DNA of 64,000 bases from Patescibacteria group bacterium (GCA_022703645.1 JAKLDG010000001.1:338814-402813), one strand, 5' to 3'. Numbered from the stretch's first letter, positions 4,071-31,626 are shown. Numbers and translations are program-made. Notes: a model not told the origin generated them from the letters alone.

Positions 4071-4434
4071 GGTTTTTCCGCAAGTTTTTCAGTATTCCTT
4101 TTATTGTCGCGGGGAGTGTAGTTTTGGTACAAGTATAGTCACAGTATCCTAATTTAAGTAGTTCTCCCCCCTTCTTTTCAAAGGATGTGGGTATAATAAT
4201 TCTTACTTTAGGGTTTTTTTCGCGGATTTTTTCAACTAATTCTTTATAACGAAATCCGCGAATAGCGTCCTTTGAGGTGTACTTCAAAACGATAATGTCA
4301 TACTTAAATTCTTCCAAAACGCTTATATCCTTATTACTTCTTTTGAAAAAGATATCATGTTCCTTTAGTGAGATTGCATAGTGGGCTCGATAATAGTCCT
4401 CTCGTTCAACAATCAAAATCCCTTTCTTTCTCAT
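4057..4434 (-). CDS. atypical receiver-like domain protein (CheY fold lacking phospho-acceptor Asp)
   Basis: (beta-alpha)5-like pattern ILIVERED...DIIVLKYTS...KVRIIIPTSFEKK; Lys in place of the conserved phospho-acceptor Asp. Confidence 0.4.
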   Translation of the reverse strand: MRKKGILIVEREDYYRAHYAISLKEHDIFFKRSNKDISVLEEFKYDIIVLKYTSKDAIRGFRYKELVEKIREKNPKVRIIIPTSFEKKGGELLKLGYCDYTCTKTTLPATIKGILKNLRKNLIPK

Positions 4435-4526
4435 AGATATTATACCCCCCTTGTTTTTTTTAAATGAGCATCAAATAAAAAATAAAAAACCAGCATTTTG
4501 GTTTTATTTGTGTTATGTAATTTATA

Positions 4527-5219
4527 TTACAGGTTTTCTTGCCAAATGTCAAGAGCAATCCTTGCTGCCTCCTGTTCCGCAGCTTGTTTTGAAGACCCGG
4601 TTCCATCGGCAATCTTTTTATCTTCAAGATAAACACCCATTACAAAAACTTTTGCATGGTCTGGGCCCGATTCTTTTTCAACCTTATAGATTGGTGTAAT
4701 ACCTACTTTTTCCTGGGCTATTTCCTGAAACTTCGATTTTGGATCATAGTAAAGTTCCTTTGAAATAATCTCCGGTAAATAGGGAATTAAATACTTTTTA
4801 ATAAATTTACCCGCTGCCTCATACCCTTGATCAAGATATATTGCGCCAAGTACTGCCTCAAAGGTATTAGCAAGTATTAACTCTCTTGCTTTTCCAGTAG
4901 ACCTTGATTCTCCGCGCGATAGGAGTAGGTGGCTTTCATAACCAAGTTCCTTTGCTATTTTTGAAATCATAGTTCCTCTTACCAATGCCGCGCGCCAGTT
5001 TGTCAATTCTCCTTCAGGATTTGGGTAATTATTGTATAAATAGTCTGTAACAATTAATTCCATACATGCATCGCCAAGAAATTCAAGCCTTTCATTATGA
5101 TCAAGCTTGAAATCTTTATTTTCATTCAAATAGGATCTATGTACAAAAGCCTGCTGGAGTAAATCTTGATTCTTAAATTTTATACCTATTTTCTTTTCTA
5201 TTTCATTTAAATTGCTCAT
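4527..5219 (-). CDS. rnc: ribonuclease III
   Basis: RNase III signature ERLEFLGDA, dsRBD-like C-terminus; 230 aa. Confidence 0.9.
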   Translation of the reverse strand: MSNLNEIEKKIGIKFKNQDLLQQAFVHRSYLNENKDFKLDHNERLEFLGDACMELIVTDYLYNNYPNPEGELTNWRAALVRGTMISKIAKELGYESHLLLSRGESRSTGKARELILANTFEAVLGAIYLDQGYEAAGKFIKKYLIPYLPEIISKELYYDPKSKFQEIAQEKVGITPIYKVEKESGPDHAKVFVMGVYLEDKKIADGTGSSKQAAEQEAARIALDIWQENL

Positions 5220-5306
5220 TTGAAATTCGCTTTGCTGAAATTCTAAGAAATTGAGGAAATTCTAATATCTAATTTCTCCAATTTCTTTTAATTTCTATTA
5301 ATTTTA

Positions 5307-6578: not shown

Positions 6579-7040
6579 CTAAGCTCTTTTTGCAATATTC
6601 TTAGGGTTATTCATATCCCGACCCCACGTTGATGGATTTGATTCTATATAAGAATAAATTTCATCGTAAGATTTTTCATTGCGGATAATGTGTTCATAAT
6701 AGTTGCGTTGCCAGATACGATTTTCAAATGGTATTAATATATTTTGTTTAACCCCATCAATGCATTTTTTCGTTGTTAGTGATTTAAAACGTTGAATTAT
6801 TTGCGGCAATGACAGTTGTTTTTCTGTAGGGGCAAACCCCCGTGTTTGCCCGTTTTTAATTGGGCGGACACAGGGGTCCGCCCCTACGATACAGATAATC
6901 AAATGTATATGATTTGGCATAACAGAAAATATATCTACCTCGATATTTGAATAATACTTTGGGATTTCTTCTATCGTTTGGAAAATTATTATCCCAATAT
7001 CATTCAATCTCATCCCTCCATCAACAATTTCTCCGAACAA
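6579..7040 (-). CDS. IS200/IS605-like tyrosine transposase with RAYT-like C-terminal motifs, N-terminally disrupted copy (nonsense at codon 2 of the full-length frame; TTG internal start)
   Basis: HxH motif (MPNHIHLI), C-terminal WQRNYYEHIIRNE...YIESNP resembling the RAYT tyrosine-helix motif; full frame extends to ATG ~7145 but codon 2 is TAA; paralog at 20626..21183. Confidence 0.6.
   Translation of the reverse strand: MFGEIVDGGMRLNDIGIIIFQTIEEIPKYYSNIEVDIFSVMPNHIHLIICIVGADPCVRPIKNGQTRGFAPTEKQLSLPQIIQRFKSLTTKKCIDGVKQNILIPFENRIWQRNYYEHIIRNEKSYDEIYSYIESNPSTWGRDMNNPKNIAKRA
6826..6887. repeat. REP-like doublet: GTAGGGG-[GGGCAAAC..GTTTGCCC]-spacer-[GGGCGGAC..GTCCGCCC]-CTAC, embedded in-frame in transposase ORF
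   Basis: two GC-rich 8-bp-stem hairpins bracketed by GTAGGGG/CCCCTAC inverted termini, ~60% GC in ~35% GC background; translated as ...VGADPCVRPIKNGQTRGFAP... Confidence 0.7.
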
Positions 7041-7160
7041 ACACCCTCTATCTTGTGTACATATTGTAATAAAATAATCTCCGGGTTCGGAATAATCATA
7101 ACCTTTTATTCGTATTGACCTTCTGTTTTTGTTTTCTTTTTACATTAGAACAATTGAGAA

Positions 7161-17231: not shown

Positions 17232-17270
17232 ATTAAAAGTGGCTTGACGTTTTGGCGTCAAGCCACCTAA
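17232..17270 (-). terminator. rho-independent terminator (GTGGCTTGACG-ttttgg-CGTCAAGCCAC)
   Basis: perfect 11-bp stem; T-rich run on minus strand. Confidence 0.7.
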
Positions 17271-18646: not shown

Positions 18647-18665
18647 AAATTTAAAAAAATTAAAT

Positions 18666-19361
18666 CTATTTCGTCGGGATCACGCCGACCATGAAACCTG
18701 TTTCCAACGAATCGCCCTTCCTTTTCTGGAAATACGGTCCGACGTTGAAAATAAATCCGTCGGTTACGATAGCCCCTGTCATGCGGATATCCGTCGTATG
18801 ATTCTTGCTCCGGGATACTTCCACCAACGGCAATTTTTTGCCGGCATAGGAGAATCCGATAATCGAATCGTTCGCGCTTTTTTTCACGTCCATCGTGGAA
18901 AAAACTGTGAGACTGGTCAGAGCTTTCGGCGAATATCTACCCGTCACTCTTACCGTACCGCCTTTTTGCAGCGGCATCAAAACGCCGATACCCGCGCCGT
19001 TCGCGTGGTAATCAACCGCGGTCGTGTGTGTAATCACGGTCGGACCGCCCGTCACCTGCAGAGACATCGTGTAAATCGTCGCGTCCACGCGGCTTCCGAG
19101 CTTCGCGCTCAAAGAGATGTGGTTGCCGGAAAGCATGTCGCGGAAAACGTACTGTTTCACACCGACGCATGCTTTACCATTGAGTACATTCAGGTTCCCG
19201 AAGACGATTTTGCTGCCTCCGTCAGGAATCGAGTAGTACTGCACCAGCGAGGGCATTACTCTGTAGAAAGCCGTGGCGTCCGCTTCGTTGTAGGCGAACG
19301 CTTTCGCTGAAACGAAGAGCAATCCGAACACAAACAACATAAACAGCTTTTTCATAACCAA
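18666..19361 (-). CDS. secreted hypothetical protein (GC-rich gene, ~50% GC)
   Basis: signal peptide MVMKKLFMLFVFGLLFVSAKAFA; beta-rich; compositional outlier; the R-rich antisense ORF 18798..19310 is a GC artefact. Confidence 0.5.
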   Translation of the reverse strand: MVMKKLFMLFVFGLLFVSAKAFAYNEADATAFYRVMPSLVQYYSIPDGGSKIVFGNLNVLNGKACVGVKQYVFRDMLSGNHISLSAKLGSRVDATIYTMSLQVTGGPTVITHTTAVDYHANGAGIGVLMPLQKGGTVRVTGRYSPKALTSLTVFSTMDVKKSANDSIIGFSYAGKKLPLVEVSRSKNHTTDIRMTGAIVTDGFIFNVGPYFQKRKGDSLETGFMVGVIPTK

Positions 19362-19513
19362 TCTCCTTTGAAAGGTATTTTGTTAAACAACTTTGTTTGT
19401 CCTTGTGGACACCATAATAATAGCACATTTTTGGCTCTATGTCCAGACTTTTCCTCTCTTGCGCGGATTGTTGAAATGTTGTATATTACAAAAACAATAA
19501 ATAATAAATTCAT

Positions 19514-19837
19514 ATGGGAAATACAGACGAACAAAAAGATAGTATTATGGATGATGAAAAATTCATTAATTTCATGGAATCAAGAGATGAAAAACTTGTA
19601 GATTTTTTAACTACTAAATTCGGCGCAATCGATGGTAGATTTGAGAAAATCGAAGGACGTCTCGATAGAATCGAAACAACTATGGTTACAAAATCCTTTC
19701 TTACTGATGTAATGGCAAATTTCAGAGTTGAAACAAACGAAAAAGTATATAAAACCGTAGAGATTTTGAAAGAGAAGAAAGTTTTTGATGATAAAGATAT
19801 AAAGAGGGTAAAAGAGGCGGGCGTTGCAGTAAAATAG
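19514..19837 (+). CDS. hypothetical coiled-coil protein
   Basis: ORF track; heptad-like charged pattern. Confidence 0.4.
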   Translation: MGNTDEQKDSIMDDEKFINFMESRDEKLVDFLTTKFGAIDGRFEKIEGRLDRIETTMVTKSFLTDVMANFRVETNEKVYKTVEILKEKKVFDDKDIKRVKEAGVAVK

Positions 19838-19859
19838 ATTTTTGGGATATTTTTATTAA

Positions 19860-19900
19860 AAAAACAACCGCGAAGGCTAAAGCCTTCGCGGCGTTGTGTT
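19860..19900. terminator. terminator-like hairpin CCGCGAAGGC-taaa-GCCTTCGCGG between convergent genes
   Basis: perfect 10-bp GC-rich stem; flanking A-run. Confidence 0.55.
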
Positions 19901-19911
19901 TCAAGAGAAAT

Positions 19912-20508
19912 TTAGGGTTGATTCTGCTCGGGGTGGTCCCAATCCTTTCCGTAGATTTCCGCATTGGGAATGTTTGCGAAATTCTGCCCCTTGGGATAGC
20001 GGCGCGCCGCCATGAACTGCGAAATAGTCATCTTTGTGTTTATCGGTGTGGCATTTGATGACTTTCTCCAACGGTCCATCTCCGAAAAGTACTGCATTTG
20101 GACGCCAGAGAATTCCTCACTGTCGCCGGATCGCCATTTGCAGGTTACTCTGCCGTCTGGGATGGTTTCGCAGTCGTACGCGAGACCAACGGCAGTGAAA
20201 AGATCGTCTTTTGACAGAGATACTGTGAAATGGTGACCGCTCTCGATATCCTCTGCGCTGAGCGTGCGGGTCTTGCAGTGTTTGTTAAGTCCTATCCATT
20301 CGGGATCTTTCAGCCCGCAGTCAGACCCGACCAGAGTGTAGTAGTAGCGGCCGGTCTTGGGTGAATCCGTGCGTTCCATGGACTTTTCCGTTCTAATGAG
20401 CATCAGGACAACTAAAATTAAAATACCCGTAGCAAGCATGGAAAATAGCACTATTCGTTTCATTTCTTTCACCTCGATTTTTCCCATTTTTGGGAGATTT
20501 GCCCGCAT
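19912..20508 (-). CDS. secreted Cys-containing hypothetical protein (GC-rich; likely true start MKRIVLFSML at ~20463 preceded by GAGGTG)
   Basis: signal peptide after internal Met; ~50% GC. Confidence 0.5.
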   Translation of the reverse strand: MRANLPKMGKIEVKEMKRIVLFSMLATGILILVVLMLIRTEKSMERTDSPKTGRYYYTLVGSDCGLKDPEWIGLNKHCKTRTLSAEDIESGHHFTVSLSKDDLFTAVGLAYDCETIPDGRVTCKWRSGDSEEFSGVQMQYFSEMDRWRKSSNATPINTKMTISQFMAARRYPKGQNFANIPNAEIYGKDWDHPEQNQP

Positions 20509-20625
20509 AAATGCGGGGGATATTGCAGATTGTTATGGTGCAAAATAATACATTTATAATTATATCATAGATAACGCGATGTGTCAAGTACTTTTGTAGG
20601 TGTTGGCAATTATAAATTCATGGTA

Positions 20626-21183
20626 TTTTTCCTTAAAATATTCTTAGGATTATTGCTGTCTCGTTCCCACATTTGCGGATTGGATTCTATGTAACTATAA
20701 ATTTCATCGTACGATTTTTCATTGCGAATGATGTGTTCGTAATAGCCGCGTTGAAAAATGGGGTTGCCTGTTTTGTCTAAGATAATATTTATCTTTTTCG
20801 TTGATTGATATTTAAAATACCCAATTATTTGTCCTAATGTTGGTTTTTTATCCCGTAGGGGCGGGGTCTCCCCGCCCTGAATTAAATTGTTTTTGTTACC
20901 TACAAATATCGTTTTTCTCTTCTAATATCCGCAATATAAAATGAATATGATTTGGCATTATCTGAAAAATATCTAATTTTGTATTTGGGAAATGATTCGG
21001 AATTTCGTACCAACATTTTTCTGCAACATTTCCAATCTTATTTAATTCCATTTTCCCATCCACAATTTCCCCAAACAAACATTCTCTGTCTTTTGTGCAG
21101 ATCGTAACAAAATAATCTCCAGGTTCGGAATAATCATATTCTTTAATCCGTATCGATTTTCTATTTCGTTCGATTTTTGACAT
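20626..21183 (-). pseudogene. IS200/IS605-like tyrosine transposase with RAYT-like motifs, second copy, frameshifted: N-terminal part 20896..21183 intact, C-terminal part (~20626..20850) in +1 frame
   Basis: N-terminal 95 aa aligns with copy 1 upstream frame (..EPGDYFVTICTKDRECLFGEIVDG..HIHFIL); downstream DNA ~85% identical to copy 1 3' half encoding ...GYYEHIIRNEKSYDEIYSYIESNP; stop and REP hairpin intervene. Confidence 0.65.
20855..20877. repeat. REP-like single hairpin GGGGCGGGG-tct-CCCCGCCC preceded by GTAG, at the break point of the second transposase copy
   Basis: GC-rich palindrome with GTAGGGG terminus like other REP copies. Confidence 0.6.
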
Positions 21184-21352
21184 TTTTATTTTGATTATAG
21201 CATATTTTCATTTCCCTCTTGACAAACACTATGATTTTGTAGTAAAATAATGGCTATGTAGGCTATTTTTCGTTTACATGCACGACCCTTAAAAACATAT
21301 TGAGTCAAATACTGTCCTCCTTGAGGGGACTATCAAACAAGGAGGCAACACA

Positions 21353-22270
21353 ATGTCTGAAAACGGAAGGAAGGAAAGATTCGAGGAACTGATGGAAATG
21401 TACGTTGATTACTCAAATGTAGAATGTTTCCCAGAAAGGATAAGGCGGGAGCTTTCATCTACGGAACCTTATGACGAGGATCTTATAAAGTTTTTTAAAC
21501 AAAACTCGCCTGTGGCTGGAGAGATCGCAACAAACCCTGCAAGCGATTTCATAACTCGAACTGTTTACGCTTCTACTCTGCCACAGATGCCGCCTCGTTA
21601 TTCAATTGACGACCTGCTTGTTTATAGCCCTGGCGGCCGCGCACTATTTAACCGGTTGCCAGCCGCAAGTAAAATACTCGCAAAATGGATAACCGAACAC
21701 GAATCGTGCGACATAGTAGACCTCGGAGGCGGTTCCGGTTCTTACGCATTTAAGACAATAGAAATATTGTCAAAAATGAAAGGGTTCAATTCGATCGTCA
21801 AAAGGATTTCATGGACAAGCGTAGATATTGACTCCGGCGCAATCGAACTCGGTAAGGCACGGTCTAAAGCTGATGGACTTACGGGACAAGTTTTTTTCGA
21901 GGAAGGAAATTTTATGTCAAAAAAGTTTCCCACTATCGACGCAGACCTCGTAGTATTAATCGGTGTTCTATGTGGTATGACACCGGAGGTTGCGGTAACA
22001 TGCCTCGAAAAAGTGAGACGCTTTATCGAAACGCGTAACGGCGAAATTTACGCTGCTACACTTCTGACTAGGAGTTTTGAAGAGGATCCGATATGCTTCA
22101 GAATCTTCGCGAAACTCGGCTGGCATCTCAAACCGAAAACCGAGGAAGAGGTCAGAAAGGTCTTTAATGATGCCGGATACGAAATTATCGACATCCACAG
22201 TGAGCGCGACACGGAGACAGAAAGAGTCCCCGGGCAGTACGCAATTGTCAGAGCGCGTTTAAAAGCTTAA
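21353..22270 (+). CDS. class I SAM-dependent methyltransferase
   Basis: motif I DIVDLGGGSGSYAF; GGAGG Shine-Dalgarno; ~44% GC. Confidence 0.55.
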   Translation: MSENGRKERFEELMEMYVDYSNVECFPERIRRELSSTEPYDEDLIKFFKQNSPVAGEIATNPASDFITRTVYASTLPQMPPRYSIDDLLVYSPGGRALFNRLPAASKILAKWITEHESCDIVDLGGGSGSYAFKTIEILSKMKGFNSIVKRISWTSVDIDSGAIELGKARSKADGLTGQVFFEEGNFMSKKFPTIDADLVVLIGVLCGMTPEVAVTCLEKVRRFIETRNGEIYAATLLTRSFEEDPICFRIFAKLGWHLKPKTEEEVRKVFNDAGYEIIDIHSERDTETERVPGQYAIVRARLKA

Positions 22271-22343
22271 TACTAAAAAAACATCTTTTATTACAATCCC
22301 AACTTTGTTATAATTCTATTATAACTTAGGAGGGATTGTTTTT

Positions 22344-30685: not shown

Positions 30686-31450
30686 ATGAAGATTATTTCT
30701 TTCAATATTAACGGCATCAACTCGGCCATCAAATATGGTTTGCGGGATTTTATATCTCTAGAAAATGCCGATATCTACTTGTTCCAAGAAGTAAAAAATT
30801 CCTGGGATACTATTGATGACTCTTTGCGGAAAATTCCGGGTTACGAAACATATTTTTACCAAGCAGCAAAAAAAGGATATTCCGGACTTCTTGCATACGT
30901 GAAAACGAAGAACAAACCAATCGGATACAAGGAGGGTATAGGGTTTAGGGTTATAGACGAACAAGCGAGAGTGCAGACATTAGAATTCCAGGATTATTAT
31001 TTAGTTAATACCTATCTACCACATTCAGGAAGGGAACTTGAGAAACTTCCATTCAAACGTGAAGTAAACGAAAAATTCCTCGAATACTGTGAGTCTTTGA
31101 AAAAGAAAAAGCCACTTATAATTGCAGGGGATCTGAATGTTGCGCACAAAGATATTGATCTCGCCAATCCTCGCGCCAATATGGGAAACGCCGGATTTAC
31201 GACGGATGAGAGAGATTTTTTCGATAAATTCTTATCCCACGGATATATCGATACATTCCGCGAATTTGTAAAAGAAAATGGCCACTATACCTGGTGGAGC
31301 TGGCGGACAGGGGTACGCGAAAGAAATATCGGTTGGCGCATTGATTATTTTCTCGTCTCTGAAAATATTTCAAAACGAGTGAAAAAGAGTTGGATTCTGA
31401 AAGACATTCTCGGATCCGATCATTGCCCGATAGGATTAGAAATCCTGTAG
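30686..31450 (+). CDS. xthA: exodeoxyribonuclease III (AP endonuclease)
   Basis: MKIISFNINGI..., catalytic DLNVAHKDIDL, C-terminal SDHCPI; 254 aa. Confidence 0.85.
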   Translation: MKIISFNINGINSAIKYGLRDFISLENADIYLFQEVKNSWDTIDDSLRKIPGYETYFYQAAKKGYSGLLAYVKTKNKPIGYKEGIGFRVIDEQARVQTLEFQDYYLVNTYLPHSGRELEKLPFKREVNEKFLEYCESLKKKKPLIIAGDLNVAHKDIDLANPRANMGNAGFTTDERDFFDKFLSHGYIDTFREFVKENGHYTWWSWRTGVRERNIGWRIDYFLVSENISKRVKKSWILKDILGSDHCPIGLEIL

Positions 31451-31626
31451 GGGCGCAAAATTTTAAGCCCTTTTTTTGGGGCGTTATGTGTAGCATTCCT
31501 ACAAAACCGTTCTTTCTTTGGCTTTTATAACGTAAAATTAACCATGCGCTTTATATTGGACTTTTTTTAAATTTAGCATAGAATAGGAGATAAGAAAACA
31601 AAAAAGCAATAAATCAATAAATCAAA

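Follow-up and report, generated by a model that had tools for sequence, protein, structure and literature searches.

How does a transposase-like gene come to lie in two reading frames on either side of a palindrome? The question is raised by a gene at positions 20610..21183 (minus strand) of a 64,000-nucleotide stretch of the genome of a Patescibacteria group bacterium (GCA_022703645.1, JAKLDG010000001.1:338814-402813). This whole stretch was analysed and is called the window below. The gene resembles those of the transposases associated with repetitive extragenic palindromic (REP) sequences, named TnpA_REP or REP-associated tyrosine transposases (RAYT). It is called copy 2 here; a related gene in the window is copy 1, and a third one, outside the window, is copy 3. 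The original prediction had described copy 2 as a RAYT-like gene broken at a REP hairpin. The site was right, but that hairpin is normal, and the lesion appears to be the loss of another one. Judged from its sequence, copy 2 is a pseudogene of a TnpA_REP/RAYT of the HUH/Tyr type, subclass 2.4 (RAYT group 4). It was very probably inactivated by the loss of one of the two REP hairpins that such a gene normally carries in frame.

Structure of the interrupted gene

Copy 2 is composed of the following features.

20896..21183, minus strand: N-terminal part, 95 codons and a TAA stop codon (reading of the open reading frame, ORF)
20900..20903, minus strand: GTAG foot of the putatively lost 5' REP stem-loop, kept as an orphan (DNA alignment with locus L108, which encodes the homologue P0121)
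20878..20898, minus strand: AT-rich spacer of the former REP doublet, taacaaaaacaatttaattca (alignment)
20855..20877, minus strand: surviving 3' REP unit, with the hairpin GGGCGGGG-aga-CCCCGCCC at 20877..20859 and a CTAC foot at 20858..20855
20610..20854, minus strand: C-terminal part in the +1 frame, with alphaC (PTLGQIIGYFKYQSTKK), then FQRGYYEHIIRNEKSYDEIYSYIESNPQMW

The N-terminal ORF begins with MSKIERNRKSIRIKEYDYSEPGDYF and ends with IMPNHIHFILRILEEKNDICR / ...PNHIHFILRILEEKNDICR (EEKNDICR and stop). Its 95 residues and the stop after them, a TAA at 20898..20896, had been correctly described. The HuH motif is NHIH (PNHIHFI, 20952..20941) and the ORF stops shortly past it. This fragment was matched by the NCBIfam model REP_Tyr_transpos with an E value of 1.1e-4. 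The hairpin lies 21 nt beyond the TAA and has a perfect stem of 8 bp, all G/C. Viewed on the plus strand, GTAG (20855..20858) is followed by GGGCGGGG-TCT-CCCCGCCC (20859..20877), at the positions given previously. Folded as single-stranded DNA, the hairpin had a calculated energy of -13.5 kcal/mol (z = -4.1).

The C-terminal part lies in the +1 frame, as predicted, although it ends at 20610 and not at 20626. This frame is open from 20921 to a TAA at 20612..20610, that is over 103 sense codons, and the chance of such a stop-free run at this base composition is about 1e-4. The two frames overlap over 23 nt (20899..20921). The C-terminal part contains FQRGYYEH (20756..20733) and the Tyr motif YIESNP (20693..20676). 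No start codon was found in the open C-terminal frame ahead of codon 83, which lies past the Tyr motif; the Tyr-bearing part is therefore untranslatable by itself. A promoter and terminator scan around copy 2 gave no enrichment over shuffled sequences, and an Rfam scan of the whole 64-kb window gave no match. The guanine-plus-cytosine (GC) content of copy 2 is 0.32.

Comparison with intact relatives

The closest intact relatives of copy 2 are the Patescibacteria proteins P0121 (64% identity), P0122 and P0123. P0121, the closest, was used as the reference for the break and its locus, L108, was aligned with copy 2 at the DNA level (alignment A4); locus L110 was also compared. This sublineage reads the foot in the phase xGT-AGG, as Cys-Arg, and the doublet as ...D-CRGG-VPPP...ILIQGGETPPLR.... 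Downstream of the doublet the proteins continue with KPTLGQ...FKYQSTK...IFQRNYYE. In copy 2, the N-terminal frame ends with DICR and the +1 frame reads NKNNLIQGGETPPLRDKKPTLGQ / NKNNLIQGGETPPLR. Protein alignment placed each half in the frame of its homologues, so the shift sits between GTAGG and the spacer. The spacer, read NKNNLIQ in the +1 frame, is homologous to DKENILIQ of P0121.

At this point L108 reads tGTAGG-GGCGGGGTTCCCCCGCCCGA-TAAGGAAAACATTTTAATTCAGGGCGGGGAGACCCCGCCCCTACGG (TAAGG...) and copy 2 reads tGTAGG-TAACAAAAACAATTTAATTCAGGGCGGGGAGACCCCGCCCCTACGG (TAACA...). Copy 2 is shorter by exactly 20 nt, which correspond to the 5' stem-loop of the intragenic REP doublet. The spacer has the same length in both (22 nt), and a stretch of 34 nt including the 3' REP unit shows no differences. 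The junction is placed between 20899 and 20898, where the stop codon TAA (20898..20896) is formed. The change of frame and the TAA both follow from the length of the gap, since 20 equals 3n + 2. The gap is most parsimoniously read as a deletion because all relatives of the sublineage have the 5' hairpin.

Some points weigh against this reconstruction. No orthologue of copy 2 with more than 66% identity was found, and the ancestral junction is deduced from paralogous or xenologous relatives. An indel of one nucleotide within the 23-nt overlap, in the A5 run (20916..20912) or in the T3 run (20906..20904), would also yield a continuous ORF. Copy 2 has F in place of the W of the WQ motif, but this F is common to the intact P0121-P0123 and so is not a sign of decay. 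It had been considered as a mark of decay, together with the N to G change in FQRGYYEH, and both were dropped, since the three closest intact relatives have FQ. The N to G change is the only one private to copy 2 with respect to P0121-P0123, and P0128 has G as well.

A frameshift in the A5 or T3 run was reduced to an alternative once L108 and L110 had shown the xGT-AGG phase and the loss of 20 nt. It supposes that one nucleotide was inserted into a homopolymer and that copy 2 never had a 5' hairpin, its order having always been GTAGG-spacer-hairpin-CTAC. With one nucleotide less in 20899..20921, an uninterrupted ORF is indeed obtained (...EEK(T/N)DI(F)VGNKNNLIQGGETPPLRD...). The codon phase of the foot also differs between sublineages, and most family members (45 of 50 feet) read it GTA-GGx, as Val-Gly. 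Copy 2's own sublineage P0121-P0123, however, reads Cys-Arg, which is the phase of the DICR of its N-terminal frame. A stem-loop is found directly past GTAGG in all relatives of this sublineage, and the gap with respect to L108 is that very stem-loop, the 22-nt spacer being kept. An insertion of one nucleotide is thus improbable.

Hairpins within genes of the family

In an alignment of 36 sequences (A2; copy 1 and 35 homologues), those homologues that have an insert between the HuH and Tyr motifs show it as a segment read 'VGAxPxxxP...GQxxGxAPT' directly past the HuH strand. It is sometimes repeated, its length is very variable, and in the DNA it consists of GTAG-footed hairpins. From 80 genome loci, 45 such intragenic segments were taken by their first 8 nt only (GTAGGGGC). 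In 38 of the 45, the foot led directly into a perfect stem of 7 bp or more (shuffled control, 0.4), and 14 different stems were seen. The stems covary while the peptide varies (AD/VC, AG/AC, AT/GC), which points to selection on the DNA hairpin, the protein tolerating the encoded residues. In the window, 8 perfect GTAG-footed hairpins were counted for 0.75 expected (first-order Markov model, maximum of 4 in 200 simulations); five of them are of the GC-rich GTAGGGGC type. An in-frame hairpin at this very site is a published hallmark of the subfamily (PMC6006769), so the hairpin of copy 2 is no intruder.

The same loci bear on a second alternative, in which the two halves of copy 2 would be joined during translation. 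A programmed +1 frameshift or slippage in the 23-nt overlap (at A AAA AC, or at AGG-TAA) would give a low level of a protein of about 190 residues, and the transposase would be throttled. The frames do overlap, a single +1 shift joins them without a stop and the C-terminal part is fully open over its 103 codons. In known +1 sites such as that of prfB, a stop codon occupies the A site. On the other side, HuH and WQ lie in one stop-free frame in 69 of the 80 homologous loci, and the other 11, checked with looser motifs, show no change of frame either; programmed frameshifting is thus not a trait of the family. The closest relatives are in frame and have 20 nt more at exactly this point. No Shine-Dalgarno-like stimulator or slippery P-site codon fits, and AGG to GGU cannot re-pair. 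An open C-terminal part would be expected anyway after a recent deletion. Programmed frameshifting is accordingly very unlikely.

Proposed course of the inactivation

The ancestor of copy 2 would have carried a doublet composed of tGTAGG and a stem-loop, an AT-rich spacer, and a stem-loop followed by CCTAC, read ...D(I)CRGG...IQGGETPPLR.... A deletion of 20 nt would have removed the 5' stem-loop exactly and left its GTAG foot behind. Replication slippage across the palindrome, promoted by the hairpin, is the suggested cause rather than cleavage by a RAYT. The characterized TnpA_REP enzymes cut at CT/CA dinucleotides that flank the unit of foot plus hairpin (PMC8266576), and cuts outside this unit would not leave the foot. 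The outcome would be a fragment of 95 residues with the HuH motif and without the catalytic Tyr. Similarity to the relatives is 63-67% for the N-terminal part and 64-72% for the C-terminal part. As neither half is damaged further, the deletion would be recent relative to the divergence of copy 2 from its homologues.

Could this fragment have a function of its own, for instance by binding REPs as a regulator or by acting on the intact paralogue as a dominant-negative partner, the break being adaptive? The N-terminal ORF is intact with its start codon, and an intact paralogue, P0063, is present in the same genome. However, no homologue of about 95 residues was seen among the relatives listed, and the promoter scan around the fragment was not enriched over shuffles. 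According to the structural model, alphaC, the final strand of the sheet and the helix with the Tyr are all missing from the fragment, which would probably not fold. We regard a functional fragment as a highly doubtful explanation.

The break was reproducible. Four loci from different samples, on contigs named in MEGAHIT, SPAdes and JGI styles, were 100% identical over 701 nt around it, and the product of 95 residues was present on at least 10 contigs. No intact copy 2 allele was found in the protein collection searched, in which the best match had 66% identity. From these loci, the deletion is fixed in the sampled population. An artefact, in which a polymerase or an assembler would have skipped a GC-rich hairpin of a gene that is really continuous, is the least credible explanation: GC-rich palindromes are difficult templates and a continuous ORF had been named beforehand as the result that would disprove the break, but the four assemblies are identical, the shortened product recurs and equally stable hairpins were assembled intact 25 nt away as well as in copy 1 and in rlmD. 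The pseudogenization proposed previously, which a single-frame ORF on resequencing would have contradicted, was thus upheld by the four independent assemblies.

Immediately 3' of copy 2 and upstream of the GC-rich ORF 19912..20508, positions 20559..20587 (minus strand) form a perfect sigma-70 promoter consensus (TTGACA, 17 nt with TG, TATAAT). Directly past this consensus, at 20553/20554, the sequence of contig L004, which comes from a different sample, parts from that of the window. A structural difference between strains, which this hints at, or a chimeric end of the contig could account for it.

Assignment to RAYT group 4

The RAYT-like nature of the gene was confirmed by sequence and fold. 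The Pfam profile Y1_Tnp (PF01797) matched copy 1 with 28 bits for a cutoff of 23. Among the NCBIfam models, REP_Tyr_transpos scored best with copy 1 and with either half of copy 2, though below its equivalog cutoff (59 versus 80 bits). Two protein searches each gave more than 7,000 homologues in many phyla, often named 'REP element-mobilizing transposase RayT'. When the family profile was compared with the PDB, a single match was obtained, 4ER8 (E. coli TnpA_REP). For an AlphaFold model of copy 1 (mean predicted local distance difference test, pLDDT, of 82), Foldseek likewise ranked 4ER8 first, ahead of IS200/IS605 transposases. The residues encoded by the REP lie, in this model, in a loop that joins the HuH strand to alphaC and has a pLDDT under 50.

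Subclass 2.4 was defined by Quentin, Siguier, Chandler & Fichant 2018 (PMC6006769) and corresponds to RAYT group 4, so named by Bertels et al. 2017 (PMC5581495). Its members are HUH/Tyr endonucleases of single-stranded DNA and have their own REP hairpins, single with a double foot or as inverted doublets, in a surface loop of the protein. They have the motifs NH[IFV]H, WQ and YIxNNP and a median length of 194 residues (PMC6006769). The beta3:alphaC insert is variable and REP sequences occur in frame within tnpA_REP (PMC6006769). The cognate REPs are long hairpins, closed at the base by three G-C pairs, with a 5' GT[AG]G foot, or they have a 'double foot', GT[AG]G...C[TC]AC (PMC6006769). Most members by far also have REPs on the flanks of the gene, no further than about 1 kb from it, in a REPtron-like arrangement (PMC6006769).

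The three copies share most of these traits. NHIH is present in copies 1, 2 and 3, in agreement with NH[IFV]H. The Tyr motif is YIESNP in copies 1 and 2 and YIESNS in copy 3; the consensus of the alignment is YIxxNP, and copies 1 and 2 agree with the YIxNNP pattern of the subclass. The motif upstream of it is WQ in copies 1 and 3 and FQ in copy 2; its W is invariant in A2, and F is found in the three closest intact relatives, P0121-P0123, as a variant of this sublineage. The insert lies between beta3 (HuH) and alphaC, and the three copies and the examined homologous loci agree on its site. Copies 1 and 3 read it in frame; in copy 2 it is out of frame, which is the defect of this copy. The REPs are of the cognate type: copy 2 has GGGCGGGG/CCCCGCCC with CTAC and the orphan GTAG, copy 1 has an inverted doublet and copy 3 a double foot. 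Copy 2 has the marks of a pseudogene in the 20-nt gap with respect to L108, the four identical assemblies and the C-terminal part without an early start codon.

The flanking REPs are the exception. No GTAG-footed hairpin other than the intragenic ones was found within 1 kb of copy 1 or copy 2, and these copies are thus not REPtron-like. Around copy 3, up to a distance of 1 kb, a single further GTAG-footed stem was seen; it lies about 0.8 kb downstream and is AT-rich, not of the GC-rich REP type. This does not exclude membership, the trait being frequent and not universal.

The likeness to subclass 2.4 (PMC6006769, PMC5581495) extends to the length (about 175-200 residues), the GT[AG]G foot of the in-frame insert between beta3 and alphaC, and the occurrence of double-foot REPs in copy 3 and of inverted doublets in copy 1 and in the putative ancestor of copy 2. 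It also includes the presence of several distantly related copies per genome and a patchy spread across phyla. Copy 2 departs from it by being out of frame with one hairpin lost, by FQ in place of WQ, as in its nearest Patescibacteria relatives, and by the lack of flanking REPs or a REPtron. The host also differs. It belongs to the Candidate Phyla Radiation (CPR)/Patescibacteria, with about 0.87 Mb (longest contig), a group that is not named for this subclass in the taxonomic summary of PMC6006769.

E. coli TnpA_REP (4ER8; group 2, subclass 2.2) has the same HUH/Tyr fold and uses a hairpin with a 5' GTAG guide as its substrate. It is only about 20% identical, its gene has no intragenic REP and its REPs are flanking, with bulged stems. 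Cleavage and strand transfer by TnpA_REP have been studied biochemically for groups 2 and 3 only (PMC8266576), and no biochemistry of group 4 was found in the literature searched. The TnpA of IS200/IS605 (subclass 1.1; 2A6M, 2XMA, 2F4F) also have the HUH/Tyr fold and recognize hairpins in single-stranded DNA. Their own features, none of which applies here, are DH[VI]H, Y---Q, subterminal hairpins at the IS ends, often a tnpB gene, and near-identical copies per genome. Membership in this family was rejected: the window genes have NHIH and YIESNP, the copies are 58-61% identical as proteins and transpos_IS200 scored 21 bits for a cutoff of 55.

Copies 1 and 3

The original prediction counted two decayed paralogues with REP hairpins. 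Both are damaged; copy 1 is not frameshifted at its hairpins. The features of copy 1 are the following.

6579..7145, minus strand: RAYT copy 1, with ATG at 7145..7143, TAA at 7142..7140, then 186 open codons; NHIH, WQ and YIESNP intact
6826..6887, minus strand: 62-nt REP doublet of copy 1 (GTAG-hairpin-spacer-hairpin-CTAC), read in frame as VGADPCVRPIKNGQTRGFAPT

The sole defect of copy 1 is the TAA at codon 2, where copy 2 has TCA; it is a nonsense lesion of one base and not a frameshift at a hairpin. An identity of about 85% had been given for the C-terminal DNA of copies 1 and 2. Nucleotide alignment gave 70% for this part (20626..20850 in copy 2) and 66% for the N-terminal part.

Copy 3 (P0063; L005:6001-6528) lies outside the window and is intact, with 175 residues. 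About 70 kb separate it from copy 2 on a shared contig of 206.8 kb, and it adjoins an xerC-like integrase gene and obg. The REP/RAYT system, previously thought to be only 'once-active', therefore still has an intact member in this genome. The REP of copy 3 has a perfect double foot (GTAGGGGCGGGTTTGAAACCCGCCCCTAC) and is read VGAGLKPAPT. This 29-nt REP is identical in RAYT genes of an Acidobacteriaceae and a Dehalococcoidia metagenome-assembled genome (MAG; L069 and L078).

Between them, the three copies show 58-61% protein identity and 66-70% DNA identity. They belong to different sublineages and their REPs are read in different frames. By these alignments the copies are old or were acquired independently, which fits the published picture for subclass 2.4.

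REPs in other genes

Further elements of this type were recognized in the window.

14563..14617, minus strand: 55-nt REP doublet in an rlmD-like 23S rRNA methyltransferase gene (13604..14923), in frame, read VGAGLAPAKKGQPQGLPLQ
31447..31503, plus strand: probable decayed REP doublet (weak), whose GTAG foot gives the TAG stop of an xthA-like ORF (30686..31450)

The rlmD doublet is not present in several orthologues, as seen in an orthologue alignment. PDB homologues of the rlmD protein left it undecided whether the REP segment is an insertion, and this was settled by the close orthologues: it is one. L111 carries another doublet at the codon site of the window's REP, and L112 carries a single unit there (L112:6307-6330). 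The doublets of the L111 rlmD are at 900-957 and 1491-1545; one of them is nearly identical to that of the window and lies at another rlmD site. In the aligned rlmD orthologues, several of which are named CPR/Patescibacteria, further in-frame REP-like peptides were seen at other sites. REP/RAYT had been held to be atypical of CPR genomes. This was not borne out for this lineage: the closest named relatives of copy 2 are intact Patescibacteria genes, and related rlmD genes, several of them named CPR/Patescibacteria, have REP or REP-like insertions. No paper linking RAYTs or REPINs with Patescibacteria was found in the literature searched.

Two side observations concern other palindromes. An intergenic perfect palindrome of 11 bp with GTGG/CCAC ends, GTGGCTTGACG-N6-CGTCAAGCCAC, is present at 17239..17266; it may act as a terminator in both directions or be a double-foot REP of another type. 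The coding region of priA in a further Patescibacteria genome (L108:4452-4536) contains a GTAG-footed doublet of inverted units (GTAGAGACGCGC... / GTAGAGACACAC...) that differs from those above. The priA doublet echoes the published tendency of intragenic REPs toward replication and repair genes.

Intragenic GTAG REPs in other genes have been described by Di Nocera et al. 2013 (PMC3733652). Like these and the Rickettsia palindromic elements (RPE), the rlmD doublet is a short palindrome in frame in a housekeeping gene; such elements are often dimers that encode about 20-30 residues. The window elements differ from them in being few and strikingly GC-rich against a background of 37.6% GC; of the four, RAYT genes contain two. 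Two inverted REPs and a spacer that can form one long hairpin make up the REPINs (Bertels & Rainey 2011, PMC3116915), and the doublets of copy 1 and L108 fold in the same way. REPINs are presumed to be mobilized by a RAYT (PMC3116915). The classical ones are, however, extragenic, are present in hundreds of copies and go with single-copy RAYTs of groups 2 and 3.

The GC-rich block

The block 18650..22280 had been described as compositionally atypical, and indeed its GC content (0.420) is the highest of any 3.6-kb stretch in the window (mean 0.378, standard deviation 0.020). It is a mosaic. GC-rich ORFs at 18666..19361 (0.51) and 19912..20508 (0.49) and a methyltransferase gene at 21353..22270 (0.45) are separated by AT-rich stretches. 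Copy 2 was thought to mark the edge of an island. It is instead internal to the block, in an AT-rich stretch between ORFs 19912..20508 and 21353..22270.

No Pfam match was obtained for ORFs 18666..19361 and 19912..20508 (minus strand), which contribute most to the local rise in GC. One of the two has an N-terminal hydrophobic stretch, which could be a signal peptide or a membrane anchor. The class I methyltransferase gene of the window (GC 0.45) adjoins an AT-rich histidine-kinase gene. In a distant relative, L092, a methyltransferase homologue (4319-5236; 38.5% identity) lies directly upstream of a homologous histidine-kinase gene and has a GC content of 0.56 versus 0.36-0.40 around it; no RAYT is nearby. 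With the same adjacency and GC contrast in both, at least this part of the block is an old conserved neighbour.

A metagenome scan with the histidine kinase for sister genomes gave distant relatives only (best segment at most 57%), of which L092 alone was informative. In L112, the nearest relative with synteny, found via rlmD, radA and ykuD-rlmD are 1.2 kb apart for 16 kb in the window. The absence of the block from a sister genome was not deduced from this, since cysS is part of the DNA in between and the two genomes are rearranged elsewhere as well.

Meaning of the finding

Copy 2 is, by its alignments, an ordinary pseudogene of an already described family, whose inactivation has been resolved to the loss of a 20-nt hairpin. 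By itself this finding is minor, one more dead transposase-like gene. It is nevertheless a clean natural example of how the REP segment of a group 4 RAYT may fail, by loss of a palindrome whose length is not a multiple of three. It also puts on record a Patescibacteria genome of about 0.87 Mb (longest contig) with a REP/RAYT system in which one paralogue is intact and two are damaged, and with a doublet read in frame in rlmD.

Could the REP arrays of group 4 RAYT genes work as a dosage switch, by gain and loss of units of 3n±1 nt, and could REPs colonize essential genes in frame at preferred codon sites, the RAYT carrying its cognate REP as a 'seed' across phyla? This idea is speculative and on balance unlikely. 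The seed is suggested by the REP of copy 3, identical in the Acidobacteriaceae and Dehalococcoidia MAGs; the colonization by the rlmD site with three different REPs in three genomes and by the near-identical doublet at another rlmD site. If it were true, loss of a unit would turn a paralogue off, as in copy 2, and possibly on again, and the dosage of the transposase would be self-limiting.

For annotation, GC-rich 'VGAxPxxxP/GQxxGxAPT' peptides in CPR proteins are to be read as translated REPs. A hairpin within a group 4 RAYT gene is to be taken as normal and not as a lesion. Such segments are prone to indels. The broader pattern that may deserve attention is that of in-frame REP units colonizing both essential and RAYT genes in a tiny CPR genome.

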